Shown here: positions 6,648 through 57,008 of the stretch, one piece after another
Numbering within the stretch: the stretch's first letter is position 1
Layout of the letters: each line of letters begins with the position of its first letter
Source: Gammaproteobacteria bacterium
GTDB lineage: Bacteria > Pseudomonadota > Gammaproteobacteria > UBA4575
Direction: 5' to 3'
DNA length: 64,000 nucleotides
Assembly: GCA_963422595.1 (NCBI GenBank)
Contig: OY730298.1
Location: forward strand, 612,861-676,860
Program-made: the position numbers and the translations under genes
Notes under the pieces: model-generated
Database searches by the model: none
Told to the model about the DNA's origin: nothing
Seen by the model: the letters and a program-made list of their open reading frames with translations, nothing else

Positions 6648-7705
6648 GAACCCGCTGGTGGCGGTTTTACTGTGACCATCATGCCAGGTTGCAGGTTTTC
6701 ACCGCCGCGCGTCACCACCAGGTCATCAGGCCGAATCCCTCCAATTACCTCAATGCTGGTAGTTTCTGCGACTCCGGTTTCCACGTTGATTCGCTCGGCT
6801 ATTAATTGTTCATTAATACGAAAAACGTAAATTCCTTCTCTGCGCAACACTAAGGCATCGCGCGGTACCAGCACAGCCTCTCGCGTATGCGCGGTTGGAA
6901 TAGCAACACGTAACAGATTGCCAGCGCTTAATGAATGAGTGGCGATGGATATGCGTAACTCATATAATCGTGATACGTCACCTCCTACGGGGACAAGCGC
7001 GCGAACTTTACCTGCTCCTGTTAATTTCCCGCGCGTATAGGTTAATGGAGTACCGATAGTGATAAATTGCAGGGAAGTTGCCGGAACGCGCGTTTGAATT
7101 TCGAGGTTGCTGGTACTTACCAGGCGCACAATGGTATTACCATCTTTAGCCCATTCTCCCGCCTGCAACAGCTGTTCCGATACCACGCCATCAAAGGGCG
7201 CGAGCACCTTGGTTCGTCGTAGCCGTTCCTGTGCCTGAACCAGTCGCGCTGTTGCCGAAACTATATTGCTACGCGCCACGGACTGATCCGCAATGGCCTG
7301 ATCAAGCTGGCTGCGCGCGATATTGTTTTCTGAAACCAGCTTTTGAAATCGCTCAACCTCTTTAGAGTGAAAATCAAATTTAGCTTTTTCACTTTGAATA
7401 GTAGCTCTTTCTTCTATGATTTGTTGTTGAATAAATACATCATCCAGCTTTGCGACCACAGCATCTTTGCTGAAGCGATCGCCCACCTCCGCAACCCTAA
7501 TCAAACGTCCGGATATTTCCCCGGCCAAATTGACGTCATCACGACTGATCACCGTAGCACTATACAAAGCGGTGGGCGCAATGCTTTTTTGCACCGCTTG
7601 CTCTGCTACCACGAATATAGGCGGGGGCCTCTTTTTATCTTCCGCGTGGCATACAGAGATAAAGAGTATTAACGTCAATGCGATCTTTAAGAATGGACGA
7701 TTCAT
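6644..7705 (-). CDS. RND efflux periplasmic adaptor (membrane fusion protein, HlyD/AcrA family)
   Basis: 353 aa. Signal/lipobox-like N-terminus (LILFISVCHA), coiled-coil hairpin and beta-barrel regions. Translationally coupled to the RND permease. Confidence 0.85.
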   Translation of the reverse strand: MNRPFLKIALTLILFISVCHAEDKKRPPPIFVVAEQAVQKSIAPTALYSATVISRDDVNLAGEISGRLIRVAEVGDRFSKDAVVAKLDDVFIQQQIIEERATIQSEKAKFDFHSKEVERFQKLVSENNIARSQLDQAIADQSVARSNIVSATARLVQAQERLRRTKVLAPFDGVVSEQLLQAGEWAKDGNTIVRLVSTSNLEIQTRVPATSLQFITIGTPLTYTRGKLTGAGKVRALVPVGGDVSRLYELRISIATHSLSAGNLLRVAIPTAHTREAVLVPRDALVLRREGIYVFRINEQLIAERINVETGVAETTSIEVIGGIRPDDLVVTRGGENLQPGMMVTVKPPPAGS

Positions 7706-7745
7706 AAATATATGGTTGATTAATTTCAGATACTAAAGCTATACA

Positions 7746-8705
7746 TTAACTAAGCGTTCCATTGCAACTGCTACCCTGTCCAGCGGTACAGCCATAACAG
7801 TGATCGGCGACCGCAATCTCGTTATTTTCCAGATCCACGTCGATTAGTTCTGACAAATGTGTACGCATTTGATCATTATGCCGTACAGCGAGTCCAAGCA
7901 TCTGATTAAAATCACAGTCATACACGTAACCCCTCCAATCTACGCTTATTAAAGAGCGACACATCACCGACTGTAAGTTTTTCTCGTAATAGGAGTCGCG
8001 TAATAACTGCATATACTGGTGAAATTTCCCCTGGCTGATCAGGCTACTGCCAAATCTCTGAATTGGCATGTTCGTGATGGTAAACAAGTGATCAAAGCTT
8101 ACGTCATATCTCACTAAAAACTCATGGTACTCTTGTTCCAGTGATTCCTGTGGGGGGGGCAGCTGTGCACCTTGCGGATTATACACCAGTGTTAATTTCA
8201 GCTGCTCGTGGTTGCTGCCATAACCCAGGTCATTAAGTTTTTTTAGTGCACGTATACTTTTCCAAAACACACCTTTGCCACGTTGTCTGTCTACGTTTTC
8301 TTTAAGGTAGCAAGGCAGCGAGGCGACAATCTCCACTTGGTGGTCAGCCAGAAAGTCTGCCAAATCTTCCTGGCCAGGTTCTTCAAGGACAGTCAGGTTG
8401 CAGCGGTCAATCACTTGTCGTGATTGACCGCGCGCAGTTTTTACCAGTTCCCTGAATAGTGGGTGCAACTCAGGAGCGCCGCCAGTAATATCAAGTAGTC
8501 GTATATTTTGCGTCAGCAGATAATCAATGACGATACCTATGGTTTCAGGCGACATCATCTCATTACGGGTGGGGCCAGCGTTCACGTGACAATGCACGCA
8601 AGACTGGTTACAGCGATAGCCAAGATTGACTTGTAAAGTTTCGACTTTACGACGGTGAATTTTGGGAAAATCGGTTGGTTTTAGTAAATGTACAGTTGCG
8701 TGCAT
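7746..8705 (-). CDS. Radical SAM protein with Cys-rich C-terminus, ArsS-like (arsenosugar-biosynthesis radical SAM family)
   Basis: 319 aa. CNQSCVHC radical-SAM cluster motif near the N-terminus. C-terminal CYGCTAGQGSSCNG Cys-rich tail characteristic of the ArsS/rSAM-Cys-rich family. Confidence 0.65.
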   Translation of the reverse strand: MHATVHLLKPTDFPKIHRRKVETLQVNLGYRCNQSCVHCHVNAGPTRNEMMSPETIGIVIDYLLTQNIRLLDITGGAPELHPLFRELVKTARGQSRQVIDRCNLTVLEEPGQEDLADFLADHQVEIVASLPCYLKENVDRQRGKGVFWKSIRALKKLNDLGYGSNHEQLKLTLVYNPQGAQLPPPQESLEQEYHEFLVRYDVSFDHLFTITNMPIQRFGSSLISQGKFHQYMQLLRDSYYEKNLQSVMCRSLISVDWRGYVYDCDFNQMLGLAVRHNDQMRTHLSELIDVDLENNEIAVADHCYGCTAGQGSSCNGTLS

Positions 8706-8740
8706 GCTATGCTCATCAATTATGAGGCCATAAAAATGGC

Positions 8741-10870
8741 TTAACTACGCTGCCAAGCGTGGTATTTTTGTATCCAATATAATAGTTTTTCAGGCGCGTG
8801 CGTTTTTTTCCACGCCGCCGCCGCATACTTGTTTGCCTCGGCCAAAGTTGGATAAATATGGATGGTGCCAAGTATCTTATTTAAGCCTAGTCCATGTTTC
8901 ATCGCCGCAATATACTCTGTAATCAGCTCTCCTGCATGACTGCCTGCAATGGTTACGCCAAGTATTTTATCTTTTCCTGCGGGTGTGATAATCTTTACTA
9001 TGCCACTTGCACGTGCGTCAATTATGGCGCGATCCAGATCAGAGACGTCATATCGCGTCACTTCAAACTCAATGTTTTGTGTGCGTGCGTCCTGCTCGTT
9101 CAAGCCCACTCGCGCCACTTCCGGATCAGTAAAAGTGCACCAGGGTATTATAGAATAATCGACGCGGAATTTTTTAATGTGCCCGAATAAGGCATTAACG
9201 CTGGCATACCAGGCCTGATGCGCCGCGGCATGCGTAAACTCATAGCGGCTGGCAACGTCCCCGCAGGCATAAATATTAGGATAATTCGTTTGTAAAAATT
9301 CATTTAATTCTAATTTTCCATTTTTAGTAAGCCTGATTTTCAGGTTCTCATCCCAGACACTATGCGTAGTCGCACGGCGTCCTGTTGCAACCAGTAAGAT
9401 GTCAAATGGCACCTCAATGGTTTTGTTTTTATGCTCGCAGTGCAATAAATTTGAACCTTTATGCCGTGTCACCTGCGCGGCAGTATGACGGGTGAGAATT
9501 TGAACACCATCTTTATTAAGGCTATCGGCAACCATGGTGGAAATTTCCGCGTCTTCGCGCGGCATGATCCTGGGCGTCATTTCAATTAGCGAGACTTGTG
9601 TGCCAAAGCGCGCGAAGCACTGCGCCAGTTCACAACCAATAGGGCCTCCTCCCAGTATTACCATGTGTCCTGGCAACTCGGTTAAATTCCAAATTGTGTC
9701 CGAAGTGCGAAAATCTACTGTTTCCAGACCCGGGATGTCAGGAATAAAAGGTTCGGCGCCAGTAGCGAGAATAATATTCCTGCCAGTTACTGTTGTTCCA
9801 TTCACCGCAACTGTCCACGGGTCTTTTAACGTTGCCTCTCCATGAATACATTCGACCCCTAATTTTGTATAACGTTCGACAGAGTCATGAGGTGCAATTT
9901 TTTTAATCGTTTGATGCACGTGCTGCATGACATCCTTGAAATCGAATTCTATATCCACCGGTTTACAGCCATATTGCGTGGCCCGTTTCACTTGAGCAAT
10001 AAAGTTCGCTGATTGTATTAACGCCTTTGAAGGCACACACCCTGTATGTAAGCAGTCACCCCCCATTTTATGTTTCTCAATAAGGGTAACCTTAGCCTTA
10101 ACCGCGGCAGCAATATAAGCCGCAACTAATCCCCCTGAACCGGCGCCAATTACGATAACGTTACGATCAAATTTTTTAGGCTTGGTAAAATTCGCATAGC
10201 TATGCCGAGCTTTAATTATTGCTATCATTTTTCTACCCAGCCAGGGGAAGGCCGCCAATAGTACCAACGCAAATATAATTTCTGGTGCTAATATCCCATG
10301 CAGTGAATCAAGTTTTGCAAGCTGGGTGCCGACGTTTACAAGCACCAGTGATGCTGCGATCATGCCGAGAAAGCTCACGACAAAAAAATGTAGCGTACCC
10401 ATGCTGGTAAGTCCCATGACTAAATTAATAACCATGAAAGGAAAGACAGGGATTAAGCGGAGGGTAAATAAATATAGCGCGCCATCTCTTTCAATACCTT
10501 TATTAACGGCGCGTAATTTGTCGCCAAAATGATGTTGCGCGAAATCACGAAAAATATAACGTGAAAGCAGGAATGCAAGCGTTGCCCCTATGGTTGCTGC
10601 GGGTAATACAATAAATACGCCTAAAAATAATCCAAATATTGCCCCCGCGAGTATGGATAGAATCCCTGCCCCTGGCACAGACAAGGCAGCGGTGGCAGTG
10701 TATATCAGGAAAAATATCAGGATAGTCCTGACAGGATAGGCATGAAAGTAGTCGGTGATAAGTTGCTGCTTTGACTTGACATAGGCAAAGTCAAGATACT
10801 GCTGCAAGTCAAAAATGAGAAATCCGGCAACTAAAATAGCAATAACCAGCAGAGCAATTACTTTTTTCAT
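8741..10870 (-). CDS. Bifunctional TVP38/TMEM64 (DedA-like) membrane domain fused to a class I FAD-dependent pyridine nucleotide-disulfide oxidoreductase (mercuric reductase / dihydrolipoamide dehydrogenase-like)
   Basis: 709 aa. N-terminal roughly 220 aa with multiple TM helices of DedA/TVP38 type. Then GAGSGG FAD motif, GGDCLHTGCVPSK redox-active disulfide, and a C-terminal HxYPTLxE dimerisation motif. No MerA C-terminal Cys pair. Confidence 0.85.
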   Translation of the reverse strand: MKKVIALLVIAILVAGFLIFDLQQYLDFAYVKSKQQLITDYFHAYPVRTILIFFLIYTATAALSVPGAGILSILAGAIFGLFLGVFIVLPAATIGATLAFLLSRYIFRDFAQHHFGDKLRAVNKGIERDGALYLFTLRLIPVFPFMVINLVMGLTSMGTLHFFVVSFLGMIAASLVLVNVGTQLAKLDSLHGILAPEIIFALVLLAAFPWLGRKMIAIIKARHSYANFTKPKKFDRNVIVIGAGSGGLVAAYIAAAVKAKVTLIEKHKMGGDCLHTGCVPSKALIQSANFIAQVKRATQYGCKPVDIEFDFKDVMQHVHQTIKKIAPHDSVERYTKLGVECIHGEATLKDPWTVAVNGTTVTGRNIILATGAEPFIPDIPGLETVDFRTSDTIWNLTELPGHMVILGGGPIGCELAQCFARFGTQVSLIEMTPRIMPREDAEISTMVADSLNKDGVQILTRHTAAQVTRHKGSNLLHCEHKNKTIEVPFDILLVATGRRATTHSVWDENLKIRLTKNGKLELNEFLQTNYPNIYACGDVASRYEFTHAAAHQAWYASVNALFGHIKKFRVDYSIIPWCTFTDPEVARVGLNEQDARTQNIEFEVTRYDVSDLDRAIIDARASGIVKIITPAGKDKILGVTIAGSHAGELITEYIAAMKHGLGLNKILGTIHIYPTLAEANKYAAAAWKKTHAPEKLLYWIQKYHAWQRS

Positions 10871-10973
10871 TATAATTAAAGCGCATCTGTGGGGTTGATT
10901 AATTAAGCAAAAACATATTCAGTCTGTAAGCTATGGCTGCGATACCAAGCTGCATTCACAATATACCTCTGTT

Positions 10974-11918
10974 ATGCGTTTAGCCACCTGTAAATACAAC
11001 AATCGCGTCCATCTTGCCGTGGTGCGCGATGATCTTGTGCTGATGCCAACAACGAGTTCTGATTGGCCAACCGGTCTGCACGGCATGCTACAACTAATCG
11101 ATAATTGCGAACGGGCCTTACCGGATTTGCGTGCATTTATTAATCAGGCCAACCCTGATCAATGGCTGCCTTTATCGGAGATAGAACTATTGTCACCGAT
11201 TCCAAGACCACGGCAAAATATCATGTGTCTTGGTTGGAACTATACAGAGCACGTCGAAGAAACCACTGGCAACCCATTAGAGGCGCCCAAGCTGCCCAAA
11301 TACCCCATTGTGTTCACTAAAGCTGTGTCAAGCATGAATGGGCCCTATGCCGAAGTTCCCGTGAACCTTGAGGTTTCAAATAAAATGGATTGGGAAATTG
11401 AGCTGGGTGTCATTATTGGTAAGGGTGGCAAGGGAATTTCACGCGCGCGCGCGCTTGAGCACGTGTTTGGGTATACCGTCATTAATGATATATCGGCCCG
11501 CGATTATCAAAAACGGCACCAGCAATTTTTTATCGGCAAGAGCTTCACTGGGGCCTGTCCAATGGGCCCATGGATAGTTACTGCCGATGAAATTCCTGAC
11601 CCGCAAACACTCGATTTACAAAGTCGGGTAAATGATCAGATTAAGCAAAGCTCGAATACAAAATATCAGATTTTTGACGTTGCAACGGTTATTGCAAGCC
11701 TGTCACAGGGCATGGTACTGGAAGCCGGGGATATTATTGCCACGGGCACGCCAGGTGGTGTGGGATATGCGCGTAACCCACCGGAATATCTAATGCCAGG
11801 CGACGTGGTGGAATGCGCAATAGAATCTATTGGAGTGATACGCAATGTAATTACCGCGGCAAATCCGGACCACGACCATAGTAAATCTGAAGTATTATCC
11901 CACCGTATAACTAAGTAG
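10974..11918 (+). CDS. Fumarylacetoacetate hydrolase (FAH) family protein
   Basis: 314 aa. FAH-domain pattern (…GKSFTGACPMGPW…GTPGGVG…). Confidence 0.75.
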   Translation: MRLATCKYNNRVHLAVVRDDLVLMPTTSSDWPTGLHGMLQLIDNCERALPDLRAFINQANPDQWLPLSEIELLSPIPRPRQNIMCLGWNYTEHVEETTGNPLEAPKLPKYPIVFTKAVSSMNGPYAEVPVNLEVSNKMDWEIELGVIIGKGGKGISRARALEHVFGYTVINDISARDYQKRHQQFFIGKSFTGACPMGPWIVTADEIPDPQTLDLQSRVNDQIKQSSNTKYQIFDVATVIASLSQGMVLEAGDIIATGTPGGVGYARNPPEYLMPGDVVECAIESIGVIRNVITAANPDHDHSKSEVLSHRITK

Positions 11919-11925
11919 CTGAACA

Positions 11926-12516
11926 ATGAACATTAAAGAGCGTATAAGAGCGATACTTTTACAGGAAGCACAGGCAATATCGTCAATTCCGGTAACGGAT
12001 GACTTTGAGCGTGCCATCCATCTGCTAAAGGACTGTAAGGGCAAAGTGCTCACTACTGGCATGGGCAAGGCCGGTCATATTGCCAATAAATTTTCGGCAA
12101 CCCTATGTTCAACCGGAACCCCTGCATCATTTGTACATCCGGGAGAAGCCGCGCATGGAGACTTGGGACTAATTGGGGAAAATGATGCCATTGTAGCGTT
12201 TTCGACGAGTGGCAAAACCCGGGAAGTCTTAAATATGTTAGTTGCAGGGCGTGAACTTGGACTACGTACCGTAATTGCGATCACTGCGCATCCGCAGTCC
12301 ACGCTACGCGAATTAAGTGATGTAGTCATTGACATGGGCGTGATTAAAGAAGCCTGCCGACTGGATTTAACGCCAACCTCAAGTACGGCGGCGATGCTCG
12401 CGATTAGTGATGCACTGGCCCTGGCGTTAATGGAACTCAAAGAATTTACTCGGGAAGATTTTGGCATGCGTCACCACGGTGGTTATCTTGGCAGGAAAGC
12501 CCGTAATGCAGACTAA
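11926..12516 (+). CDS. SIS-domain sugar-phosphate isomerase (KdsD/GutQ-like, lacking the CBS pair)
   Basis: 196 aa. GMGKAGHIANKFSATLCSTGTPASFVHPGEAAHGDLG is the arabinose-5-phosphate-isomerase-type SIS motif. No CBS domains follow. Confidence 0.7.
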   Translation: MNIKERIRAILLQEAQAISSIPVTDDFERAIHLLKDCKGKVLTTGMGKAGHIANKFSATLCSTGTPASFVHPGEAAHGDLGLIGENDAIVAFSTSGKTREVLNMLVAGRELGLRTVIAITAHPQSTLRELSDVVIDMGVIKEACRLDLTPTSSTAAMLAISDALALALMELKEFTREDFGMRHHGGYLGRKARNAD

Positions 12517-13034
12517 TGCTTCCCGTATATTATATGGCGCGTAAACTAACGCTTGTTCGTCATGCAAAATCAAGTTGGGACAATGCGGATCTGCGGGATT
12601 TTGATCGCCCGCTTAACAGGCGAGGATTTAAGCATGCGTCTGCAATGGGTAACCGCCTGGCAAACAATAACTATAGCGTTGACGTTATAATTTCGAGTCC
12701 TGCGGTTCGGGCGATCATTACTGCTGAATTGATCGCTGGCGAAATCGGTTTTGATAAAAACAATATTCTTTGCAAGCCGGAGATTTACGCAGCTGGATTA
12801 CATACGCTACTAAACGTAATAACTAATATAGATGACAAACATGAGCACGCCATGTTGGTGGGGCATAATCCCGGGTGTACGTGCTTATATAATTATCTGT
12901 GTGATGCTTGCGTTGACAACGTGCCGACCTGTAGCGTGGTTCAAATCGCATTCAATACGCATACGTGGCAAGGTACTTCTGAGCACAGTGGCAAAATAAT
13001 TGACTTTGATTTTCCCAAAAAAACAAATAAGTAA
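12516..13034 (+). CDS. Histidine phosphatase superfamily protein (SixA-like phosphohistidine phosphatase)
   Basis: LTLVRHAKS (RHG-type catalytic motif) near the N-terminus. The true start may be the ATG at 12534. The start overlaps the upstream stop (TAATG). Confidence 0.65.
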   Translation: MLPVYYMARKLTLVRHAKSSWDNADLRDFDRPLNRRGFKHASAMGNRLANNNYSVDVIISSPAVRAIITAELIAGEIGFDKNNILCKPEIYAAGLHTLLNVITNIDDKHEHAMLVGHNPGCTCLYNYLCDACVDNVPTCSVVQIAFNTHTWQGTSEHSGKIIDFDFPKKTNK

Positions 13035-13145
13035 CGTAGACAAATCTAACTACTTATCGTGTTACGACACCTTCTGGCTAATTGTGCAAACGCTCCGAAA
13101 AGCACAAGCCGGCAATAATGTTGAGTATCAGCACTGAACAGACCA

Positions 13146-13889
13146 TTACCAATAACTTTCAGTGGTGATATGCCCCGGGCTTCTCCTCAGGTTTTTCTGC
13201 AAGCCTTTTTCTTTCAGCGCGTTGCGCGTATCAACAAGCATGTTTGGATTACCGCACAGCATCACTTGAGAATTGTCAGCATGGATTGTCATACCTGCTT
13301 TACTTTCAAGTGTGCCGTTGTTAATTGCGGCGGGAATGCGCCCGCTCAATGAAAAACCCGTTGGTTCCCGACTCACAAAGGTTATCATCTTAAATCGTTC
13401 TTTATATTCCTCACCAAATTGCAGGATAGTGTCCTGATAGGTTAATTCTTTTACATATCGAACCGCATGCACCAGTACTATGTTTTCAAAACGCTCCCAG
13501 GCTTCGCCAGATTTTAATATGGATAAAAAAGGCCCGATTGCAGTACCCGTGGACAACATCCAGATATCTTTGCCATGCGGAACCTCATTCAAGGTGAAAA
13601 AACCGTTTGCGCGTTTATCAATCCATATTGAATCGCCAGCGCGTAATGTGCATAGCCTGGGCGACAGCACTCCTTGTGCAACTACTACGGAGTAAAACTC
13701 ATAAATATCTTCATCGGGGGAATTCACAAAGGAATAAGGTCGTCCCACAATTTGATTATCAATGTTCAGGCCCAGGCGACCATACTGACCGGCAATAAAT
13801 GGATCAATCTTTGCCTCTATACGTAAAGAATAAAGCAGATCAGTCCAATGCCTGTTTTCAACTACCTTCCCTTGAATCCAATTACCCAT
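13146..13889 (-). CDS. fpr: Ferredoxin-NADP(+) reductase (Fpr-type FAD/NAD-binding)
   Basis: 247 aa. RPYSF FAD-binding motif and GTGIGPF NAD-binding motif. Confidence 0.8.
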   Translation of the reverse strand: MGNWIQGKVVENRHWTDLLYSLRIEAKIDPFIAGQYGRLGLNIDNQIVGRPYSFVNSPDEDIYEFYSVVVAQGVLSPRLCTLRAGDSIWIDKRANGFFTLNEVPHGKDIWMLSTGTAIGPFLSILKSGEAWERFENIVLVHAVRYVKELTYQDTILQFGEEYKERFKMITFVSREPTGFSLSGRIPAAINNGTLESKAGMTIHADNSQVMLCGNPNMLVDTRNALKEKGLQKNLRRSPGHITTESYW

Positions 13890-14212
13890 TCAGATTTATC
13901 TTGATTAAATACGTATGAACTGCAACGTAGTGATGCAATAAGTAACACAACTATTTGCGCCGTGCTGCCGCTTTAGTGGCAATTAAATATCCAGGCAACC
14001 CAGTCTATCACGAGCCAGACAAAAGTTTTGATTGCTACCAAGATGTCTGTTTTGGTAAAGCAACCTTCAGACGCAATACCATCACTCCCCATAGTAACCG
14101 TAAATTCCTGCCACCATAAATACCCCTGATTTTACCTGCTGTCAGCGCCCTCCTGCGGGCGTGCTCACAAAGGTATGCAGCAGGCCCTGAAATCCATTCA
14201 CGTCATCCCTGC

Positions 14213-15370: not shown

Positions 15371-15952
15371 TTGACAAAATTAGATCGATTATTGGCACAA
15401 GTACGATCCTGTACCGTTTGCGAATCCACGTTACCGCTGGGCCCCAATCCGGTTTTACGCGCTAAACGCAGTGCCCGGATTCTTATTGTCGGGCAAGCCC
15501 CCGGTATTAAAGTACATGAGAGCAGCATTCCCTGGAATGATGCAAGCGGTAAGCGTTTACGTGAGTGGATGAATATAAATGACGCGATATTCTACGACGA
15601 GACCAGAATCGCCATCATCCCCATGGGTTTTTGTTACCCCGGCAAAGGTAAGTCAGGTGACCTGCCGCCACGTAAAGAGTGCGCGCAGTTATGGCATCAG
15701 AAATTACTCAATTTATTGCCCAATATTCAACTTACCCTACTCGTGGGCCAGTACGCGCACAAACATTATTTAACCGATATTGGGGCTACACTTGCCGAGA
15801 CCGTTAAAAGCTGGCGAACATATGTGCCCGAATATTTTCCTTTGCCTCACCCGTCGCCCCGAAATATAAGATGGATGAGACAAAACAGCTGGTTTGAATC
15901 CGAAACTGTCCCGCAATTACGCAAACAGGTTCGTTCGACATTAGGTGCGTAG
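15371..15952 (+). CDS. Uracil-DNA glycosylase superfamily protein (family 4/5-like)
   Basis: 193 aa. CTVCE…ILIVGQAPG (GQAPG-type motif A) and a C-terminal HPSP motif. Confidence 0.8.
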   Translation: MTKLDRLLAQVRSCTVCESTLPLGPNPVLRAKRSARILIVGQAPGIKVHESSIPWNDASGKRLREWMNINDAIFYDETRIAIIPMGFCYPGKGKSGDLPPRKECAQLWHQKLLNLLPNIQLTLLVGQYAHKHYLTDIGATLAETVKSWRTYVPEYFPLPHPSPRNIRWMRQNSWFESETVPQLRKQVRSTLGA

Positions 15953-16208
15953 CGTGTGTTAAATCGAAGCTCCGCGAAATATGTTTTTGGGAATGCGGCA
16001 GGCGCGACCAAAGCGTGTTCGTCACTACTGCCAACTTCACAAGTTCCGTCAAAGATTACGTGACGAAAGTCCAAAACGCATAATTCTGATAGACGGTAAA
16101 GAACTCGCTCGTCCCATGGTCAGGTACAATATCAGCGTGCACTTAAAGATAAGTCATCAAATCAAGCGGATCGACGAAGACTACTTCGATCAGGAAACCC
16201 TTTAGATC

Positions 16209-18968
16209 ATGCGCCTGTCGTGGAACGAGGTTCGCGCACGCGCCGCTGCCTTTGCAGATGACTGGCGCGAAGCGGCCTACGAGAAGGGCGAGATGCAAAG
16301 CTTCTATAACGACTTCTTCAAGGTGTTTGGGGTCCGCCGCCGCACCGTGGCGCGCTACGAGGCGCATGTCGCCACACTGGACAACCGCTCGGGCTTCATC
16401 GATCTGTTCTGGCCCGGCGTCCTGATCGTCGAGCAGAAGAGCACCGGGCGCAACCTGAAGGCGGCCTACGCGCAGGCCGGAGAGTATTTCGACGCCCTGC
16501 CCGAGCGCGACCGCCCGCGTTACATCCTGGTCAGCGACTTCCAGACCTTCGAGCTTCACGATCTGGACGAGCGGGATGTCGTCTCCTTCGCGCTGGCGGA
16601 ACTGCCTGCCCATGTCGAGGCATTCGGCTTCATCCTGGGTGTGCAACGTCGTACCTTTCGCGACCAGGACCCGGTCAATGTCCAGGCATCGGAACTGGTG
16701 GGGCATTTGCATGATGCCCTCAAAGCATCCGGTTATGGCGGCCATAATCTGGAATTGTTCCTGGTGCGGATCGTGTTTTGCCTGTTTGCCGACGATACGG
16801 GCATATTTGAACCGCGCGATATTTTCCTCGACTTCATTGAGACTCGCACGGGCGAGGATGGCGCCGATCTTGGGCCGTGGCTATCGCAACTGTTCCAGGT
16901 GCTCGATACGCCGGAGAACAACCGCACGGCGACGCTGGACGAAGACCTTGCCCAGTTCCCCTACGTCAACGGCGATCTGTTCGACGGGCCGCTGCGCATC
17001 CCGTCATTTGATGTTGCCATGCGCGGAGCACTGCTCAACGCCTGTCGCTTCGACTGGTCGAACATCTCGCCCGCGATCTTCGGCGCGTTGTTCCAATCGG
17101 TGATGGACCCGAAAGAGCGTCGCACCCAGGGAGCGCACTACACGACCGAGAAGAACATCCTGAAGGTGATCGAGCCGCTGTTTCTGGACGACTTGCGTGC
17201 CGAATTCGAACGTCTGAAAGCACTGAAGCGTGGCCGCAGGGACAGGCTACGCTCGTTCTGGGAGAAGCTCGGCCGGCTCACCTTTTTTGACCCCGCCTGC
17301 GGCTGCGGTAACTTCCTCATCATCGCTTATCGGGAATTGCGTAGCCTGGAAATAGATGTTATGCGCGAGCTTGGAGAGCTTAATCTGTCGCAGGTGAATG
17401 TCGATCAGTTCTACGGCATTGAGCTTGGCGAGTTCCCGGCCCGCATCGCAGAGGCCGCACTGTGGATGATGGACCACATCATGAACAACCGATTGAGCCT
17501 GGAACTCGGCCACAACTATGCCCGTATCCCGTTGGTAACCTCACCACACATTATTTGCGGTGATGCCCTGGAGACCGACTGGGCAAGCCTGCTGCCGTCG
17601 GAAGACTGCTCGTATGTGTTCGGCAATCCACCTTTTGCGGGTGCGAAATTCCAGACCGCGGAACAGCGCGCCCAGGTGCGAAAGATTGCCGCGCTGGGCA
17701 AGTCCGGCGGCACGCTCGACTACGTGAGCGCGTGGTTCATCAAGGCGGGGGAGTACACCACGCGCGGCCATGCCCGCGTCGGCTTCGTCGCCACCAACTC
17801 GATCACCCAGGGCGAGCAGGTGGCGCAACTGTGGCCGATCCTGTTCGAGCGCGGCGGGCTGGAGATCGCCTTCGCACACCGCACCTTCGCCTGGGGGTCG
17901 GACGCGCGCGGCAAGGCGCACGTGCACGTGGTGATCATTGGTCTCAACCGGCGGGAGGCGGCCCGGCCCGAGAAGCGTCTGTTCAGCTATCCCGATGTCA
18001 ACGGCGAATCGGAGGAGACCCGCCACGCCGTGCTGTCGCCCTACCTGTTCGACGCTGGCGGGCTCGCCGATCCTCATCTTGTGGTGCAGGAAGAAAGCAG
18101 GCCGATCAACGGGATGAAGGCTCTTGCGTTTGGTACACAGCCTTTGGAAGATGGGAATCTTACATTTTCGACGGAAGAGAAAAACTTGTTCATCGAGACG
18201 GAGCCAGAGTCAGTTTCCTACTTCCGACCGTTCGTAGGATCTCGCGAGTTTCTTCAAGGGAAGGAGAGGTGGATTCTCCATACAGCGGATATTCCGATTC
18301 AAAAGCTGCGCCGTATGCCACGGGTTGTTGAAAGACTGGAAGCGGTTCGTAGGTTTCGTTCAATCAGCAGGCGGAAATCTACGCAGCGCTTAGCTGATTA
18401 TCCAACAAGTTACGGTGTAACGATGGTGCCGAATACGGCCTTTCTTGTTGTTCCTCGAGTAAGCTCAGAACGCCGGGACTATGTCCCGACCGGATGGTTA
18501 GCGCCGCCCACGATTCCCAGCGAAGCAACTCTTATGCTGGCGAATGCCACCCTTGCCGATTTCGCCCTGCTGACCTCGGCTATGCACATGGCCTGGCTGC
18601 GCCATATCGGCGGACGGCTGAAGAGCGACTACCGCTATTCCATCGGCCTCGTCTACAACACCTTCCCGACACCGCCCGAAGGCGCGGACCTGTCGAGGTT
18701 GGAGCCGCTGGCCCAAGCCGTGCTCGACGCCCGCGCCGTGCATCCGAACGCGACCCTGTCCGACCTCTACGACCCCGACCTGATACCGCCGAATCTGCGC
18801 CGGGCGCATCAGGCGCTCGACCGCGCCGTGGACCGCCTCTACCGGCGGGGCGGCTTTGTCTCCGAGCGCGAGCGGGTCGAGCATCTGTTCGCGCTTTATG
18901 AGAAGATGCGGTCTCCCTTGGTATCCCGGTTGTCGGCCAAAAAACGGAGGCGACAGAAGGTCAAATAG
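16209..18968 (+). CDS. MmeI-family Type IIL restriction-modification enzyme (single-chain endonuclease + N6A methyltransferase + target-recognition domain)
   Basis: 919 aa. Collinear with the remembered MmeI sequence: N-terminal PD-ExK nuclease (DLFWPGVLIVEQKSTG), FDPACGCGNFL (motif I), FGNPPF (motif IV), and C-terminus …YDP…AHQALDRAVDRLY. About 62% GC versus about 47% in the flanks. Confidence 0.85.
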   Translation: MRLSWNEVRARAAAFADDWREAAYEKGEMQSFYNDFFKVFGVRRRTVARYEAHVATLDNRSGFIDLFWPGVLIVEQKSTGRNLKAAYAQAGEYFDALPERDRPRYILVSDFQTFELHDLDERDVVSFALAELPAHVEAFGFILGVQRRTFRDQDPVNVQASELVGHLHDALKASGYGGHNLELFLVRIVFCLFADDTGIFEPRDIFLDFIETRTGEDGADLGPWLSQLFQVLDTPENNRTATLDEDLAQFPYVNGDLFDGPLRIPSFDVAMRGALLNACRFDWSNISPAIFGALFQSVMDPKERRTQGAHYTTEKNILKVIEPLFLDDLRAEFERLKALKRGRRDRLRSFWEKLGRLTFFDPACGCGNFLIIAYRELRSLEIDVMRELGELNLSQVNVDQFYGIELGEFPARIAEAALWMMDHIMNNRLSLELGHNYARIPLVTSPHIICGDALETDWASLLPSEDCSYVFGNPPFAGAKFQTAEQRAQVRKIAALGKSGGTLDYVSAWFIKAGEYTTRGHARVGFVATNSITQGEQVAQLWPILFERGGLEIAFAHRTFAWGSDARGKAHVHVVIIGLNRREAARPEKRLFSYPDVNGESEETRHAVLSPYLFDAGGLADPHLVVQEESRPINGMKALAFGTQPLEDGNLTFSTEEKNLFIETEPESVSYFRPFVGSREFLQGKERWILHTADIPIQKLRRMPRVVERLEAVRRFRSISRRKSTQRLADYPTSYGVTMVPNTAFLVVPRVSSERRDYVPTGWLAPPTIPSEATLMLANATLADFALLTSAMHMAWLRHIGGRLKSDYRYSIGLVYNTFPTPPEGADLSRLEPLAQAVLDARAVHPNATLSDLYDPDLIPPNLRRAHQALDRAVDRLYRRGGFVSERERVEHLFALYEKMRSPLVSRLSAKKRRRQKVK

Positions 18969-18970
18969 AT

Positions 18971-19861
18971 ATGAGACTCGCGTTCGTTGACGAGGTTCGT
19001 ACCGACCCCGCACCAAATCTGCGGGGCAAATGCTGTCTCTGTGGCGATGACATGATCGCGAAGTGCGGCCAGTACGTTCGGTGGCATTGGGCTCACAAAG
19101 CCAGGATCACCTGCGACCCTTGGCACGAATCTGAAACTGACTGGCACCGATACTGGAAAGACGCCTTTCCTGCCAATTGCCAGGAAGTGCTGCACGTAGA
19201 CGACAGAACGCATGAGAAGCATATAGCGGATGTCAAGACTCCCAGTGGATTTGTCGTTGAGGTTCAGCATTCCCCCATCACAGAACACGAAGCGCTAAGT
19301 CGAGAACGCTTTTACAAGAACATGATTTGGATTGTCGATGCACGACACCTTGTCGGTTGGTTTTACGTAGGGATGGCTCATGATCTCGCAACTTGTAGTC
19401 CGATGATGTATCAAATCGAATGGCGGGGAACGAGTAGACTGTTGGAAAAGTGGTCCAACTCAGGAGTTCACGTTTATTTCGATGTCATGAACAGTGCAAG
19501 AGAACATGAGGACGATGATGGCAAATTGTGGTTCTTACCGCGCGAAACAATAGTTCCGGTACAGAAGCGGTTCCTATGGCGGTTGTTGGAATTCGATGCT
19601 ACTGACGGAATAGGATACATCGCGCCTGTCCAAGTGGAAGCGGTAATCGAAGCAGTCATGGATGGAAATTGGCCGCCATTGCATGAATGCGAAGAGGAAG
19701 ATGCTTGGCGATACCGGAGGGAGCTTCGAGAAGTGGCCGGTCGCATAGACGAACAAGGCAACAGAATACAATCAGGAAAATCGCGGCCTAGCCTCTCACA
19801 TGATCGCAAGTCACCTGAACGATCACGTACGCCAATAGATGAGGATGATTTGCCATTCTGA
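18971..19861 (+). CDS. CoiA-like (competence protein CoiA family) nuclease-domain protein
   Basis: 296 aa. N-terminal C-x2-C … WHWAHK…C…ESETDWH resembles the CoiA HFAHK…C…ESxEH signature, followed by an EVQHSPI…WIVD nuclease-like core. Starts 3 bp after the MmeI-family stop. Confidence 0.55.
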   Translation: MRLAFVDEVRTDPAPNLRGKCCLCGDDMIAKCGQYVRWHWAHKARITCDPWHESETDWHRYWKDAFPANCQEVLHVDDRTHEKHIADVKTPSGFVVEVQHSPITEHEALSRERFYKNMIWIVDARHLVGWFYVGMAHDLATCSPMMYQIEWRGTSRLLEKWSNSGVHVYFDVMNSAREHEDDDGKLWFLPRETIVPVQKRFLWRLLEFDATDGIGYIAPVQVEAVIEAVMDGNWPPLHECEEEDAWRYRRELREVAGRIDEQGNRIQSGKSRPSLSHDRKSPERSRTPIDEDDLPF

Positions 19862-20162
19862 ATGTTCCTGACGGAGTCCACAATCACCCACGAGCTTTCC
19901 ACACACTGACGGGATACGGGCCTTTATTGGAATCTCTGTTCTCCAATGGCCTGGGGTTACTACGGAGTTGGAATAGTGGTTGACACCAAACCTCACATCG
20001 CGCTGCTTCACCATAGCGAGGTGCCTGCCGGGCTCCTAAATGAGTTTTGTACCAGTGCGAACGCCGACTCTCTCAGACTCGAGAGGGCAGTTCTGAGGAA
20101 TCTCTGAATTCATCAGAGATTCTCTGATGTTGCGGTGGCCCGTGATAGTCGCTTCGGATGAT

Positions 20163-20744
20163 TCAAGCGCCTCGTCTTCGGCGCAACTCCGCCTCGGCCC
20201 ACTCTACCAACTGCAATCCGAAGTTTGGCACTTTGTCCTTTGGAAGGATCCAAATCGTTTCTCCGTCCCACATTGCCCCGGCTGGTACGGTCTTCCCACG
20301 TGGAGTCAGGTCGTACTTGAAGTGGATCATCGCGTTCGCGTTCCATTGCAGGGCCTCTTCAAGCGATGCCATCTCGACTTGGAATCTCTCTTTCCCCAAC
20401 TGCCGTCTCCCTTCCGACAGGACAAGTGCGTAGCGCTCGCAAGCACTCTCGTAGATTCTCTTGATTTGTGTTTGTGTGCCATGTTGCAGCTTGTTGAAAA
20501 TATTCGCGATGTGGTGCGTGTGCTCGGGCTCCGCGTCGCGGTTCTCATACGACCAGATCCCCTTGATCGTCAGCTCCACGATTAGCGCGTAGAGAACGAT
20601 GCTGGTCATCCCGAAATCGAGCCTTGATCTGTCCTCTGCATCTTCCCGACTCTCTCCGGGTCGTTGGATCGCAATTTCCAGTAGAACCCTCAGCGACCTT
20701 CCGAGTTGGCACGCCGTATCGATCATGTTCCTCTCGTTTTTCAT
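20163..20744 (-). CDS. Hypothetical protein with a putative HEPN-like R-x5-H motif (RDAEPEH)
   Basis: 193-aa ORF in the high-GC island. Motif assignment is by eye only. Divergent from the 20804 gene. Confidence 0.4.
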   Translation of the reverse strand: MKNERNMIDTACQLGRSLRVLLEIAIQRPGESREDAEDRSRLDFGMTSIVLYALIVELTIKGIWSYENRDAEPEHTHHIANIFNKLQHGTQTQIKRIYESACERYALVLSEGRRQLGKERFQVEMASLEEALQWNANAMIHFKYDLTPRGKTVPAGAMWDGETIWILPKDKVPNFGLQLVEWAEAELRRRRGA

Positions 20745-20803
20745 CTCTTACCCTCCCTTATGGCGTTTGTACCCGTTTCTGACTCAGTCTAGCACAACGT
20801 ACA

Positions 20804-21169
20804 TTGGACAGCTTGGCAGCGTGGAATAAGAACAAGGACTTCAAACCACTGGCCGATGTTGCAACCGTGCTTGTTTCGACTGCTGATCGTGTCGAAGGAA
20901 GGGTCTTTATCGATGTTGGTCTCGACATTCCAGACGACCACTTCGGAACGCAGATCTCCACCGAGTCTCGCGACCCCTTGGAGGTGGCGCGTATCCTGGC
21001 GTCTTTCGTCGTGCGTGCGGAGAAGATATCCGACGCGGTACAGGCCGAGATCGAATGCGGGTACAAACCGCTCGGATCGTTCGTCATGGAGATGGAGCAA
21101 GACGGAAGCGTGACGATCCGATGGCGCGCTGCGTCCGACTCCAAGACCTACGAGAAGCACATACCGTAG
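20804..21169 (+). CDS. Hypothetical protein
   Basis: 121-aa ORF starting 60 bp from, and divergently transcribed from, the 193-aa gene. High GC. No family recognised. Confidence 0.35.
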   Translation: MDSLAAWNKNKDFKPLADVATVLVSTADRVEGRVFIDVGLDIPDDHFGTQISTESRDPLEVARILASFVVRAEKISDAVQAEIECGYKPLGSFVMEMEQDGSVTIRWRAASDSKTYEKHIP

Positions 21170-21228
21170 ATAACTGTCAGTGGACGTTTTAGGATGGGAT
21201 CACTCTGCGACCAACCCCAGCCCTCGCT

Positions 21229-21423
21229 AGGCCCTCGGCCGCGCCGTGGACCGCCTCTACCGTCGCACCGGCTTCGCCTCCGAACGCGAGCGGGTGGAGC
21301 ACCTGTTTATTCTCTATGAGCAAATGCACGCGCCTTTGGTGGTTGCGGGTGAAAAGAAAGCTGGGAAGGAGAAAGAGTCGCAACCCCAAGGATCAAAGCC
21401 AGACGCTAACGACAATGCGGCGT
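21229..21423 (+). pseudogene. 3'-terminal remnant of a second MmeI-family RM gene (C-terminal roughly 58 codons only)
   Basis: Translation ALGRAVDRLYRRTGFASEREWVEHLFILYEQM… parallels the C-terminus of the intact enzyme (ALDRAVDRLYRRGGFVSERERVEHLFALYEKM). Nucleotide similarity to 18812-18905 is obvious by eye. An in-frame TAG lies immediately upstream. Confidence 0.7.
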
Positions 21424-21527
21424 GAATGGGAAGAAATGAGCTTGCCATAAACGATTCACATCTGATTTTACTGCTCTACCGCCTCCGCGGCCGAAAAATG
21501 TTATTCAACCGAGCCAACGGCAGATCA

Positions 21528-21956: not shown

Positions 21957-22903
21957 AACGGCCTGTATAAAGCGGTAAAAAGCTCAACTGGACATGGTGC
22001 TGGCTTATCTGTTTCACTCGTCCAATCTTGCAGACACTAAGGAGGGTAAGCGGCAAACTGTTAATCTGATGCGGCAGAATTCCGCCTCAATTCCGCATGA
22101 AGGCCCCTCAAGCAAAGCTACCAGAGCCTTCTCATATAGCGGCAGCACTAGTCCCGCTTCCTAATGTCAACAGGTTATCTATATTTTTAAGAATATACCT
22201 ATATTGGTATATTATAAAGTATTAATATACTTGTTTATAATGCCCCTCATTGATTTTTAACAACTATGAGGATACAAATGTGGACAAATTTATTACAAAA
22301 GTCGACAATTTTATAGTTTCGCTATGGGTAGAAACTGCACTTTTTATTGTAATGTTATCGTTAGTATTTTTACTAACGATTAAATTTTTATAAGCGAGTC
22401 TAAATTGCAAACACTCTTGTAGAATGGCGTGAAAGACATCTGCATATTTTGATAAGCAAACATCAGTTTAGTGCAGCACTTCAAACTCCTTCACGCAAAC
22501 ACTCGTTTTTACTGCACTGCTTCACTTCGTTCGCAATGATATAACTTTTATCATTGTGCGAAGTGAGGCCATGCGGCAATCGTGATGACCAGCATATTTT
22601 ATCGTTTCAATGCAGGAACAGCACTGCGTAAAATCGTTTCTTCCCCTTAATCGTTGCAAGGCACCTCAGCTTTGCTGCAATTCGAGAGACGTAGTCCCTA
22701 TAACCATGGATGGTAAGCAGACGTTAATCTGCGCATAACCTCTCTTGCCGCCCGACAATTTTCGCTGATAATTTCCAGTAGCTTCAGTGGGGTCGTTACG
22801 TCATAGTGATTGACCGATGGGGCAGATAGTCGAAAAATACCCGCGGTACAGTATTTGTTAAAGTACCTTAAAATCCGTAAAACCTGGCAATAAAACGCCT
22901 GGT

Positions 22904-55559: not shown

Positions 55560-57008
55560 ATGCGCAACGTCCTGTTTGCAGTCCTGTTACTCCTGACCAT
55601 AAGCCCGGCACTTAGTACCGACTTTGAGGTGGGAGTAGCGGCATACCGGCAAGGCGACTACACAACTGCCTTGCGCAGGTTCCAACCGCTGGCCGAACAG
55701 GGACATGCCGAAGCCCAGTTTCTCCTGGGACTTATGTACGGCAACGGTAGGGGTGTGCCCCGGGATGACCAACAAGCCGCATCCTGGTACCGCAAGGCCG
55801 CCGAACAGGGATATGCCAAAGCCCAGTTCAACCTGGGACTTATGTACGACAACGGCGAGGGTGTGCCTTGGGATGACCAACAAGCTGTATCCTGGTACCG
55901 CAAGGCTGCCGAACAGGGACTCGCTGAAGCCCAGTCCAACCTGGGACGTATGTACGACCTGGGCCGGGGTGTGTCCCATGATGATCAACAAGCCGCATCC
56001 TGGTACCGCAAGGCTGCCGAACAGGGAGATGCCGAAGTCCAGCTCGTCCTGGGGGGCATGTACGCCAACGGCAGGGGTGTGCCCCAGGATGACCAACAAG
56101 CCGCATCCTGGTTCCGCAAGGCTGCCGAGCAGGGACTCGCCGAAGCCCAGCTCGTCATGGGGGCCATGTACGTCGGCGGCAGGGGTGTGCCCCGGGATGA
56201 CCGACAAGCCGTATCCTGGTACCGCAAGGCTGCCGAACAGGGACTCGCCGGCGCACAGTACAATCTGGGACTTATGTACTACCCAGGCGAGGGTGTGCCT
56301 TGGGATGACCAACAAGCCGCATCCTGGTTCCGCAAGGCTGCCGAACAGGGACTCGCCGAAGCCCAGTTCAGCCTGGGACTTATGTACGCCAACGGCGAGG
56401 GTGTGCCCCATGACTACCAACAAGCCACATCCTGGTACCGCAAGGCTGCCGAACAGGGAGATGCCAAAGCCCAGCTCAACCTGGGACTTATGTACTACAA
56501 CGGCGAGGGTGTGCCCCGGGACTACCAACAAGCCGCATCCTGGTTCCGCAAGGCCGCCGAACAGGGAGATGCCGCAGCCCAGTTCAGCCTGGGACTTATG
56601 TACGACAACGGCGAGGGTGTGTCCCAGGATGACCGACAAGCCGTATCCTGGTACCGCAAGGCTGCCGAACAGGGAGATGCCAAAGCCCAGATCAACCTGG
56701 GACTTATGTACGTCAACGGCAGGGGTGTGCCCCAGGATGACCGACAAGCCGTATCCTGGTACCGCAAGGCTGCCGAACAGGGATATGCCGGAGCTCAGCT
56801 TGGCTTGGGAGTTATGTACTACTTGGGCCGGGGAGTACCCAAAGATGACGTTCTTGCCTACGCATGGTTCAATCTCGCTGCCGTCCAAGGCCATGAAGAT
56901 GGGAAAAAACGGCGGGATGTGATTGAGGAAGATATGACTGTGGATCAGATCGCCGCGGCGCAGGCCCTCAGCCGCAAACTTGCCGCACAGATTGCCGATG
57001 GTGACTGA
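55560..57008 (+). CDS. Secreted Sel1-repeat protein, about 12 repeats (tandem paralogue of the 54422 gene)
   Basis: 482 aa. Near-identical 5' flank, signal peptide and C-terminal 60 aa to the upstream gene. Twelve 108-bp units. Confidence 0.85.
   Translation: MRNVLFAVLLLLTISPALSTDFEVGVAAYRQGDYTTALRRFQPLAEQGHAEAQFLLGLMYGNGRGVPRDDQQAASWYRKAAEQGYAKAQFNLGLMYDNGEGVPWDDQQAVSWYRKAAEQGLAEAQSNLGRMYDLGRGVSHDDQQAASWYRKAAEQGDAEVQLVLGGMYANGRGVPQDDQQAASWFRKAAEQGLAEAQLVMGAMYVGGRGVPRDDRQAVSWYRKAAEQGLAGAQYNLGLMYYPGEGVPWDDQQAASWFRKAAEQGLAEAQFSLGLMYANGEGVPHDYQQATSWYRKAAEQGDAKAQLNLGLMYYNGEGVPRDYQQAASWFRKAAEQGDAAAQFSLGLMYDNGEGVSQDDRQAVSWYRKAAEQGDAKAQINLGLMYVNGRGVPQDDRQAVSWYRKAAEQGYAGAQLGLGVMYYLGRGVPKDDVLAYAWFNLAAVQGHEDGKKRRDVIEEDMTVDQIAAAQALSRKLAAQIADGD

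Follow-up and report, generated by a model that had tools for sequence, protein, structure and literature searches.

MmeI-type Type IIL restriction-modification (RM) enzymes recognise an asymmetric DNA site, methylate one strand of it and cut about 20 bp away. MmeI itself modifies a single strand, and its nuclease-containing homologues have been described as lacking consistent flanking genes (Morgan et al. 2009, PMC2731913). Here we describe an MmeI-family gene that has a gene for a CoiA-like nuclease-fold protein 2 nt downstream. The two genes, called A and B, lie in a 64,000-nt stretch of a Gammaproteobacteria bacterium genome (lineage UBA4575; GenBank assembly GCA_963422595.1, contig OY730298.1, positions 612,861 to 676,860 of the forward strand), and we refer to this whole stretch as the window. 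We tentatively read B as a facultative accessory nuclease of MmeI-family systems, giving that reading slightly less than an even chance.

Other described systems also bear on the locus. One set of MmeI homologues, the 'YeeA' set, has no nuclease, and its genes invariably lie next to those for a helicase, YeeB, and a GIY-YIG protein, YeeC (Morgan et al. 2009, PMC2731913). When B. subtilis was transformed, YeeABC gave no restriction phenotype (PMC7261158). CoiA resolves D-loops together with a helicase (bioRxiv 10.1101/2024.02.06.579203). A full-text literature search for MmeI together with CoiA returned nothing relevant, in line with the view that coupling of an MmeI enzyme to a second nuclease is absent from described architectures. 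The MmeI-CoiA-like coupling and the SSB-tip mimic described below were not found in the searchable literature or in PADLOC; MmeI, HEPN, Mrr and the YeeABC arrangement were all known already.

Gene A (16209-18968, forward strand, 919 aa) appears from its motifs to encode an ordinary, competent MmeI-type Type IIL enzyme. It matches MmeI_N, MmeI_hel, MmeI_Mtase, MmeI_TRD and MmeI_C, all above the Pfam cut-off with E-values from 1e-24 to 2.5e-85. In PADLOC, the Type IIG model REase_MTase_IIG covers residues 2-902 with 1142 bits. Its nuclease residues are E51, D65, E75 and K77, in 'GFIDLFWPGVLIVEQKS', and the catalytic residues of MmeI are D70, E80, K82 and E51 (PMC2731913). The 10+2 spacing of D65/E75/K77 equals that of MmeI D70/E80/K82 and E51 is also in place, a correspondence that rests on the spacing and the MmeI_N match, since MmeI was outside the alignment used. 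Methyltransferase motif I reads FDPACGCGNF and motif IV NPPF (residues 473-476, in GNPPFAG). With its five-domain architecture, PD-ExK nuclease, gamma-class N6-methyladenine methyltransferase motifs and fused target-recognition domain, A has the make-up of the MmeI family (Morgan et al. 2009, PMC2731913; Callahan et al. 2016, PMC4833311), as the preliminary description of this DNA had said in calling it a complete single-chain RM enzyme. There is no separate methyltransferase gene near A: upstream lie the Mrr relic and a UDG gene, and the next gene downstream is B.

One segment of A stands out in comparisons with sibling cassettes (L numbers denote loci other than the window). Positions 18117-18461 (residues ~637-751, in the target-recognition domain) are the sole part of the gene without a DNA match to L083, L084, L085, L091 and L092, and identity on both flanks of the segment is 77-83%. 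The target-recognition segment has apparently been exchanged here, and A would then differ in specificity from the enzymes of the sibling cassettes.

Gene B (18971-19861, forward strand, 296 aa) has its ATG 2 nt after the TAG of A (TAG-AT-ATG) and must be co-transcribed with A. We predict that its product is a distant CoiA-like zinc-ribbon PD-(D/E)XK nuclease, outside PF06054 as modelled, and not a Bacillota competence protein. The only Pfam match of the window protein is to CoiA_N, at 24.6 bits against a cut-off of 26.3, and 67 of 72 family members match the same model (E<0.01, best 7.5e-10). CoiA_nuc (PF06054) gave no match to the window protein at E<=0.1 and only weak ones to 8/72 members (best 6.7e-5), and B is therefore placed as a distant relative and not as a member of PF06054. 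The CoiA-family assignment in the preliminary description thus agrees with the predicted fold, whereas CoiA_nuc is lacking; for the zinc-finger domain, most of the family matches CoiA_N but the window protein scores just below the cut-off.

The putative zinc ribbon of B is N-terminal (C21, C24, C32, H39/H42, C48), and C21, C24, C32, H39, H42 and C48 are at least 90% conserved. In the predicted PD-(D/E)XK core, H84 and D87 lie on strand b2 and E97-x-Q99 on b3, i.e., the aspartate on b2 and the glutamate on b3 as expected of this fold. D87 and E97 are 10 residues apart on these predicted strands, like D95/E105 of S. pneumoniae CoiA. The positions that are invariant or at least 90% conserved comprise C21-x2-C24, C32, W38-H-W-A-H42, C48-D49, E53, E55, W58-H59, K63, E72, H84, D87, E97-x-Q99-H-S101, E107, R111-E112 and additional C-terminal positions, and a family-specific beta-rich domain spans residues ~125-260. 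B shares with CoiA (PF25164 + PF06054; bioRxiv 10.1101/2024.02.06.579203) a putative N-terminal zinc finger, an atypical PD-(D/E)XK core and a long C-terminal extension, but in its E-x-Q a Q stands in place of K. The B-family profile found no match among Protein Data Bank (PDB) sequences even at E<=10, and a Foldseek search of the PDB with the B model gave nothing significant.

SSB, the protein that binds single-stranded DNA, docks genome-maintenance proteins through its C-terminal tip, and the tail of B resembles such a docking peptide in form. Residues 271-296 are conserved only at the extreme C-terminus: a linker (271-290) is predicted to be disordered (pLDDT, a model confidence score, ~40) and is unconserved, and the window protein then ends in ...DEDDLPF (tip EDDLPF). 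A [LIV]PF tip, mostly DDD[LIV]PF, ends ~75 of 120 B homologues, and the SSB C-terminal hexapeptide is DDDIPF (PMC5872125). As in SSB, a disordered linker leads to an acidic D-D-D-[LIV]-P-F ending with the carboxylate of its phenylalanine, and the tip is kept as the linker drifts. The SSB tip sits on an OB-fold single-stranded DNA-binding protein, whereas that of B sits on a predicted nuclease. The CoiA paper (bioRxiv 10.1101/2024.02.06.579203) makes no mention of such a tip.

The B family is large, with 146 word-index matches and, by profile, 4964 cluster representatives (50% identity) at E<=1e-3. Its members occur in Proteobacteria, Acidobacteriota, Chloroflexota, Bacteroidota and other phyla, in mobile and defence contexts, and its plasmid homologues are labelled 'competence protein CoiA family protein' in RefSeq. 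CoiA of Bacillota serves competence, whereas B genes lie in non-Bacillota lineages and outside competence regulons. This is not the distribution of a competence-specific, Bacillota-restricted D-loop resolvase acting with RadA. Family members were found in 39 IMG/VR contigs (loci L146-L184) and 47 PLSDB plasmids, and there were 0 matches in the 50,697 deposited phage genomes of INPHARED, which suggests that the family rides prophage-like or integrative elements and not bona fide phages.

To place the A-B pair, we surveyed 80 species-genome, 4 close-homologue, 53 metagenome and 39 IMG/VR loci of the B family, ~177 with the window. An MmeI-family gene lies directly upstream of B at 12 loci including the window (L083, L084, L093, L017, L022, L024, L032, L033, L039, L043 and L152 are the others) and nearby at one more, L037. 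The order is always MmeI then B, with a 2-nt gap or a 4-bp overlap. In a rough neighbour-joining tree these loci fall into two non-sister B clades. Among same-strand immediate neighbours in the 80 species genomes, the commonest Pfam families beside B genes are the MmeI domains (7 loci). Eco57I-type methylases, a Type ISP enzyme, OLD, HerA, a TOTE primase-helicase and SNF2 are also among the neighbours, so that defence islands are the main setting of the family. In clade 1, 13-248 nt of MmeI 3' coding sequence remain upstream of B at every locus, which points to ancestral linkage followed by repeated MmeI loss, or to co-converted flanks. Conservation of the pair across genomes, a check that the preliminary description had put forward, is partly borne out: the pair recurs in two divergent lineages, but it is also split in both directions.

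Clade 2 (L017, L022, L024, L032, L033, L039, L043 and L152) has a different operon. Its MmeI-like gene (product ~32% identical to A) overlaps a B homologue, B' (~40% identical to B), by 4 bp; B' in turn overlaps the gene for a ~690-aa DEAD/ResIII helicase by 4 bp, and a gene for a ~386-aa T5orf172/MUG113 protein follows. The complete four-gene operon is seen at L022, L032, L033 and L039 (at ~7250-14000) and at L017, L024 and L152. The hosts are Alpha- and Gammaproteobacteria, a deltaproteobacterial metagenome-assembled genome (MAG) and a Terriglobus (Acidobacteriota) MAG. The alignment shows that the clade-2 MmeI-like proteins have no D...ExK motif, and B' has no SSB-like tip.

This operon resembles YeeA(DnmA)/YeeB/YeeC (PMC2731913; PMC7261158) in its MmeI-like protein without D...ExK, its helicase, its T5orf172/MUG113 protein (GIY-YIG superfamily) and the described gene order, a likeness of gene order and domains, as sequences were not compared with B. 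subtilis YeeABC. A nuclease-less MmeI homologue, a DEAD helicase and a GIY-YIG protein occur together at L017, L022, L024, L032, L033, L039 and L152. Clade 2 differs in having a CoiA-like gene between the yeeA-like and yeeB-like genes, which neither PMC2731913 nor PMC7261158 mentions. Since the MmeI-like protein lacks D...ExK, as in the YeeA set, a nuclease acting in trans would be needed. The window is unlike YeeABC: A has its own PD-ExK, and there is no helicase and no GIY-YIG gene. In L024 an AAA_15/AAA_21 (OLD/Gabija-like ATPase) gene at 10845-12401 is inserted between the CoiA-like gene and the helicase, so the junction 3' of the CoiA-like gene accepts cargo. Whether the MmeI-like, B', helicase and T5orf172 proteins have diverged together was examined by a mirror-tree comparison, but their divergences were star-like and the correlations uninformative.

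Around A and B, the window contains an island of ~15995-21425 that, from comparison with its relatives, is best read as a decayed mosaic remnant of a HigB-HTH-Mrr-MmeI integrative cassette. The intact cassette, with the order HigB-HTH-Mrr (309 aa)-MmeI-B-F (206-218 aa)-small open reading frame (ORF), is present in L083/L084, where B is 82% identical to that of the window, and in L093 (94%), the sole close relative added by the metagenome scan. In all three, the Mrr-MmeI spacer is 3 nt and the MmeI-B spacer 2 nt. The window version would consist of three joined pieces of sibling elements, with four relics (Mrr', F', D' and E) and three intact ORFs (A, B and C). In L083 the cassette adjoins TrwB/TrwC conjugation genes and a cas cluster. 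Positions 1-20888 of that locus hold Cas3/GSU0053/GSU0054 on one side of the cassette and TrwB/TrwC on the other, with a metallo-beta-lactamase-fold gene (weakly Apyc1-like) separating the cassette from the cas cluster, and the whole has the look of an integrative conjugative element rich in defence genes.

The left edge of the island is Mrr' (15995-16205, forward strand), the 3' relic of a Type IV restriction gene, about its last 70 codons. It matches PADLOC mREase_IV (E 2.9e-6) and, by tblastn, residues 265-307 of the L083 Mrr; nucleotide homology to L085, L091 and L092 begins at 15995-16005, and the stop codon lies 3 nt before the MmeI start, the same as in the intact cassettes. The last 43-70 codons being all that is left, the relic has no ORF that joins Mrr_N and Mrr_cat; L083, L085 and L091 have the 309-aa gene complete. 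Downstream of B is F' (19946-20107, forward strand), which consists of the first 47 codons of F and a short out-of-family tail: residues 1-47 of the L083 F protein match 19946-20086 at 81% (tblastn). F follows B in L001, L002, L081, L083, L084 and L093. In the window's clade F is a steadier partner of B than MmeI is, and in the window it is destroyed. The preliminary description had overlooked both of these relics, i.e., the Mrr end at 15995-16205 and the first 47 codons of F.

A recombination junction follows at 20069-20087, where an L083-like segment (Mrr'-MmeI-B-F') meets an L085-like module containing C. Nucleotide homology to L081/L083/L084 stops at 20085-20087 and the L085 match (94%), which spans C, starts at 20069; the order in L085 is HigB-HTH-Mrr-MmeI-...-C-integrase, without B and without F. 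Gene C (20163-20744, reverse strand) is intact and encodes a 193-aa protein with a predicted four-helix up-down HEPN fold. Among its residues E67, N68, E72, T76 and H77 are invariant, and at R69 most of the 23 homologues have G, F, C, S, N, D or H instead. The HEPN-like character ascribed to C is consequently retained at the level of the fold but not for its R-x5-H motif, which is not conserved. Compared with other HEPN proteins (HEPN-MNT toxins, AbiV, TT1696, AF0298), C has no conserved R-x4-6-H and no adjacent MNT partner, and it has an additional C-terminal beta-hairpin and helix. We found 30 homologues of C. Some lie beside integrases (L085, L087, L088) and one, in L086, close to a Type ISP enzyme; no neighbour is constant. 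On this comparative evidence, C is a separate module, a solitary gene with a predicted HEPN fold, unrelated to A-B.

The right part of the island is made of D' and E. The D ORF (20804-21169, forward strand, 121 aa) had been taken as a gene of its own, but it belongs to a 5'-truncated relic, D' (20789-21169), of a 203-212-aa family with one hydrophobic helix, of which it retains the C-terminal 121-126 residues. Residues 87-212 of the family member P0151 match 20789-21166 (tblastn). Because 20802-21342 is colinear with L090-L092 (87-88%; e.g., 20808-21334 against L091 8278-8804 at 88%), D can be recognised as the C-terminal ~126 residues of the 211-212-aa gene found there. In L090-L092 that gene lies inside an MmeI 3' end, and a second copy of that end bounds its right side. 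E (21229-21425, forward strand; ORF 21246-21425, 59 aa) is such a displaced MmeI 3' end, and it forms the right island edge. It matches MmeI_C (E 8e-4), which agrees with the earlier statement that the island ends in an MmeI-family 3' relic, and 18811-18922 (the 3' end of A) and 21229-21340 (in E) form a 112-nt direct repeat, 79% identical. The right junction, between the D cassette and E, is identical in the window, L090, L091 and L092, which suggests that the conserved region coding for the MmeI C-terminus is where the D cassette inserts or through which it recombines. The same layout, D in an MmeI 3' end, is seen at ~7976-8698 in L090-L092 and at 20789-21340 in the window. Two candidate relationships of D were rejected: C and D as a divergent toxin-antitoxin pair, as D is a 5'-truncated fragment and C homologues have no constant neighbour, and homology of D with F (both ~210 aa and 3' of MmeI or B), for which the hhalign probability is 0.3%. 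Scanned against PADLOC and NCBIfam, none of C, D, F and G65 had a meaningful match.

The composition of the island sets it apart from the rest of the window. Its overall GC is 56.8%, every other 5.4-kb stretch of the window being lower (maximum 54.2%) and the chromosomal genes on both flanks having 43-48%. By gene, the values are 60.4% for A (74% at third codon positions, GC3), 50.7% for B (GC3 51%), 54.6% for C and 56.6% for D. A range of 58-62%, once given for the whole segment, is true of A alone, although the contrast with the flanks and the rest of the window is real. The ORFs A, B, C, D and E are each present where they had been placed, and the view of the island as horizontally acquired defence DNA, in which a CoiA-like nuclease-fold gene is tightly coupled to that of a complete MmeI-family enzyme, is supported. 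We found no integrase at the island, no tRNA gene in the window and no direct repeats flanking the whole island, and hence no att sites. Ordinary chromosomal genes (AcrB, glutamate synthase, CbbQ, molybdopterin oxidoreductase and similar) make up the remainder of the window, and the UDG gene upstream of A, on the same strand, ends at 15952. About 0.8 kb to the right of the island is an ORF-poor, AT-rich trough (22150-22450, GC 0.287), and an imperfect 23-nt inverted repeat lies in that region (22344-22393). The second GC peak of the window (55560-57008, 0.609) is a gene for a Sel1-repeat protein with 11 repeats, with long overlapping ORFs in another frame and on the opposite strand; it is a repeat-composition effect and no island.

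What B does can be proposed from its predicted fold and tail. MmeI would make a sequence-specific break, and B, like CoiA, would cut single-stranded or branched DNA. Recruited to resected or recombining ends through the SSB-tip pockets of helicases and exonucleases (such as RecQ, PriA or ExoI), it would there destroy intermediates that the cut invader forms in repair, recombination or replication. Where a YeeA-like MmeI without nuclease residues is followed by B', an SF2 helicase and a T5orf172/GIY-YIG protein, as in the sister arrangement, the helicase would take the place of the SSB-like tip. The nuclease activity, the binding to SSB pockets and the effect on phages are all predictions from sequence. 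B may also be a mobile cassette in the 3' slot of MmeI; in neither case is it taken as an obligate two-component partner, and C and D stand outside.

Several observations weigh against an accessory role for B. Only 13 of the ~177 B-family loci, counting the window, are MmeI-adjacent (12 immediately, and L037 nearby). There are MmeI cassettes without B (L085, L090-L092), B or B+F without MmeI (L001-L004) and B beside MmeI debris only (L081, L082), and on plasmids the four MmeI genes most similar to A (61-65% identity) have genes other than B behind them. No PADLOC or NCBIfam model matches B. In the window itself, the cassette has lost the 5' part of its operon (HigB-HTH), F is truncated and we found no sigma-70-like site upstream of A; with the 5' part and F gone from this mosaic remnant, activity in the window is uncertain. 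B and F are also odd in composition: they have ~45-51% GC and GC3 of ~0.43-0.54 in loci of 51-65% GC (window, L001, L002, L081, L083), and B' has a lower GC than its operon partners (L022, L032, L039) even where they overlap by 4 bp. Mobility, amino-acid composition or selection for rare codons could be the cause of this constancy. Between L024 and L152, the helicases are 96% identical and the B' proteins only 55%, and this mismatch together with the odd GC of B, F and B' suggests that B moves independently. These observations fit a module moving alone into a slot at the MmeI 3' end, a slot shared with the D cassette.

Some of the same evidence bears on a rival that we regard as rather unlikely but a serious competitor, namely that B (with F) is an autonomous mobile cassette (homing-endonuclease-like, or a single-gene defence or addiction element) that settles at the MmeI 3' end in a slot prone to recombination, so that adjacency marks an insertion site and not a joint function. 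The constant GC of B and F (0.45-0.51, GC3 ~0.5, in hosts of 0.56-0.65), the lower GC of B', the L024/L152 mismatch and the patchy presence of B among near-identical cassettes are what this would predict. The slot holds the D cassette in L090-L092 and in the window, and in the Methylorubrum extorquens CM4 plasmid pCMU01 it holds a PLD-family gene. At this last locus (L190, 4001-7866), the MmeI gene is 63% identical to A and the PLD-family gene starts 8 bp on, a putative further nuclease in the MmeI 3' slot. B genes elsewhere keep short MmeI 3' fragments upstream, as co-conversion tracts would, and the 39 IMG/VR contigs and 47 plasmids with B-family matches also fit mobility. Against it, the 4-bp overlaps around B' have been kept even though the MmeI-like proteins and B' have each diverged to ~52-70% identity, which argues for a long co-residence of B' in the operon. 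Furthermore, the clade-2 MmeI-like protein has no nuclease motif, most B-family genes lack one recurrent target neighbour and the deposited phage genomes have no B-family match.

Host repair offers a quite improbable alternative, in which B, docked to the SSB interactome, would resolve D-loops or branches as CoiA does and so aid RecA-dependent repair of MmeI self-cuts after one-strand methylation, like Vsr with Dcm. This is in line with the action of CoiA as a D-loop resolvase with a helicase (bioRxiv 10.1101/2024.02.06.579203), with the single-strand modification by MmeI (PMC2731913) and with an SSB-like tip that points to the host genome-maintenance machinery, but B also occurs without any MmeI and next to the unrelated OLD, HerA and TOTE, clade-2 B' is part of a system without another PD-(D/E)XK nuclease, and MmeI autoimmunity in these hosts lacks direct support. 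Less likely again is a strict form of the reading in the preliminary description, an obligate defence system of two components or four genes, with MmeI dependent on the CoiA-like protein and C and D as further effectors. The 2-nt A-B spacer, the recurrence of MmeI-B adjacency and the HEPN fold of C speak for it, yet A has a complete nuclease motif of its own, characterised MmeI enzymes are active alone and without consistent flanking genes (PMC2731913), related cassettes have no B, D is a gene fragment and C comes from another module at a recombination junction. With the pairing facultative, neither an obligate two-component system nor a four-gene unit is supported. Least probable is that the island is a defence-gene graveyard in which A and B are unexpressed and intact by chance. 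Such an inert passenger would suit the four relics (Mrr', F', D', E) within 5.4 kb, the missing HigB-HTH part of the operon and the failure to find a sigma-70-like site upstream; however, the 919 codons of A and 296 of B are open with all family-invariant residues present, the GC3 of A (0.74) shows little amelioration and points to a recent arrival, and read-through from the same-strand UDG gene is possible.

The accessory role of B can be extended to a broader proposal, which we consider distinctly unlikely but worth stating. CoiA-like zinc-ribbon PD-(D/E)XK nucleases would be widespread, unrecognised accessory effectors of MmeI-type and related N6-adenine restriction systems, supplying the missing nuclease of the YeeABC-like branch (with the helicase) and carrying, in the window's branch, an SSB-tip mimic instead of that helicase, so that a single, repairable Type IIL cut is made irreversible. 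The mimic would either plug B into the host SSB interactome or act as bait for phage proteins that hijack SSB.

MmeI-family enzymes are treated as single-chain and used as programmable restriction scaffolds; if the accessory role is true, with a recurrent second nuclease coupled to them in translation, restriction by at least some of them would be a two-step process in vivo, not the work of a self-sufficient single chain. B in the YeeABC-like operons is a candidate for the missing cutter of the DnmA/YeeB/YeeC 'Type I-like' system, which has been without a phenotype since 2009. An SSB-like tip on a defence-island nuclease would link anti-phage defence with the SSB interaction hub. The locus also shows the way in which such islands evolve: cassettes are swapped between copies of the MmeI 3' end that border a slot, and layered relics stay behind.

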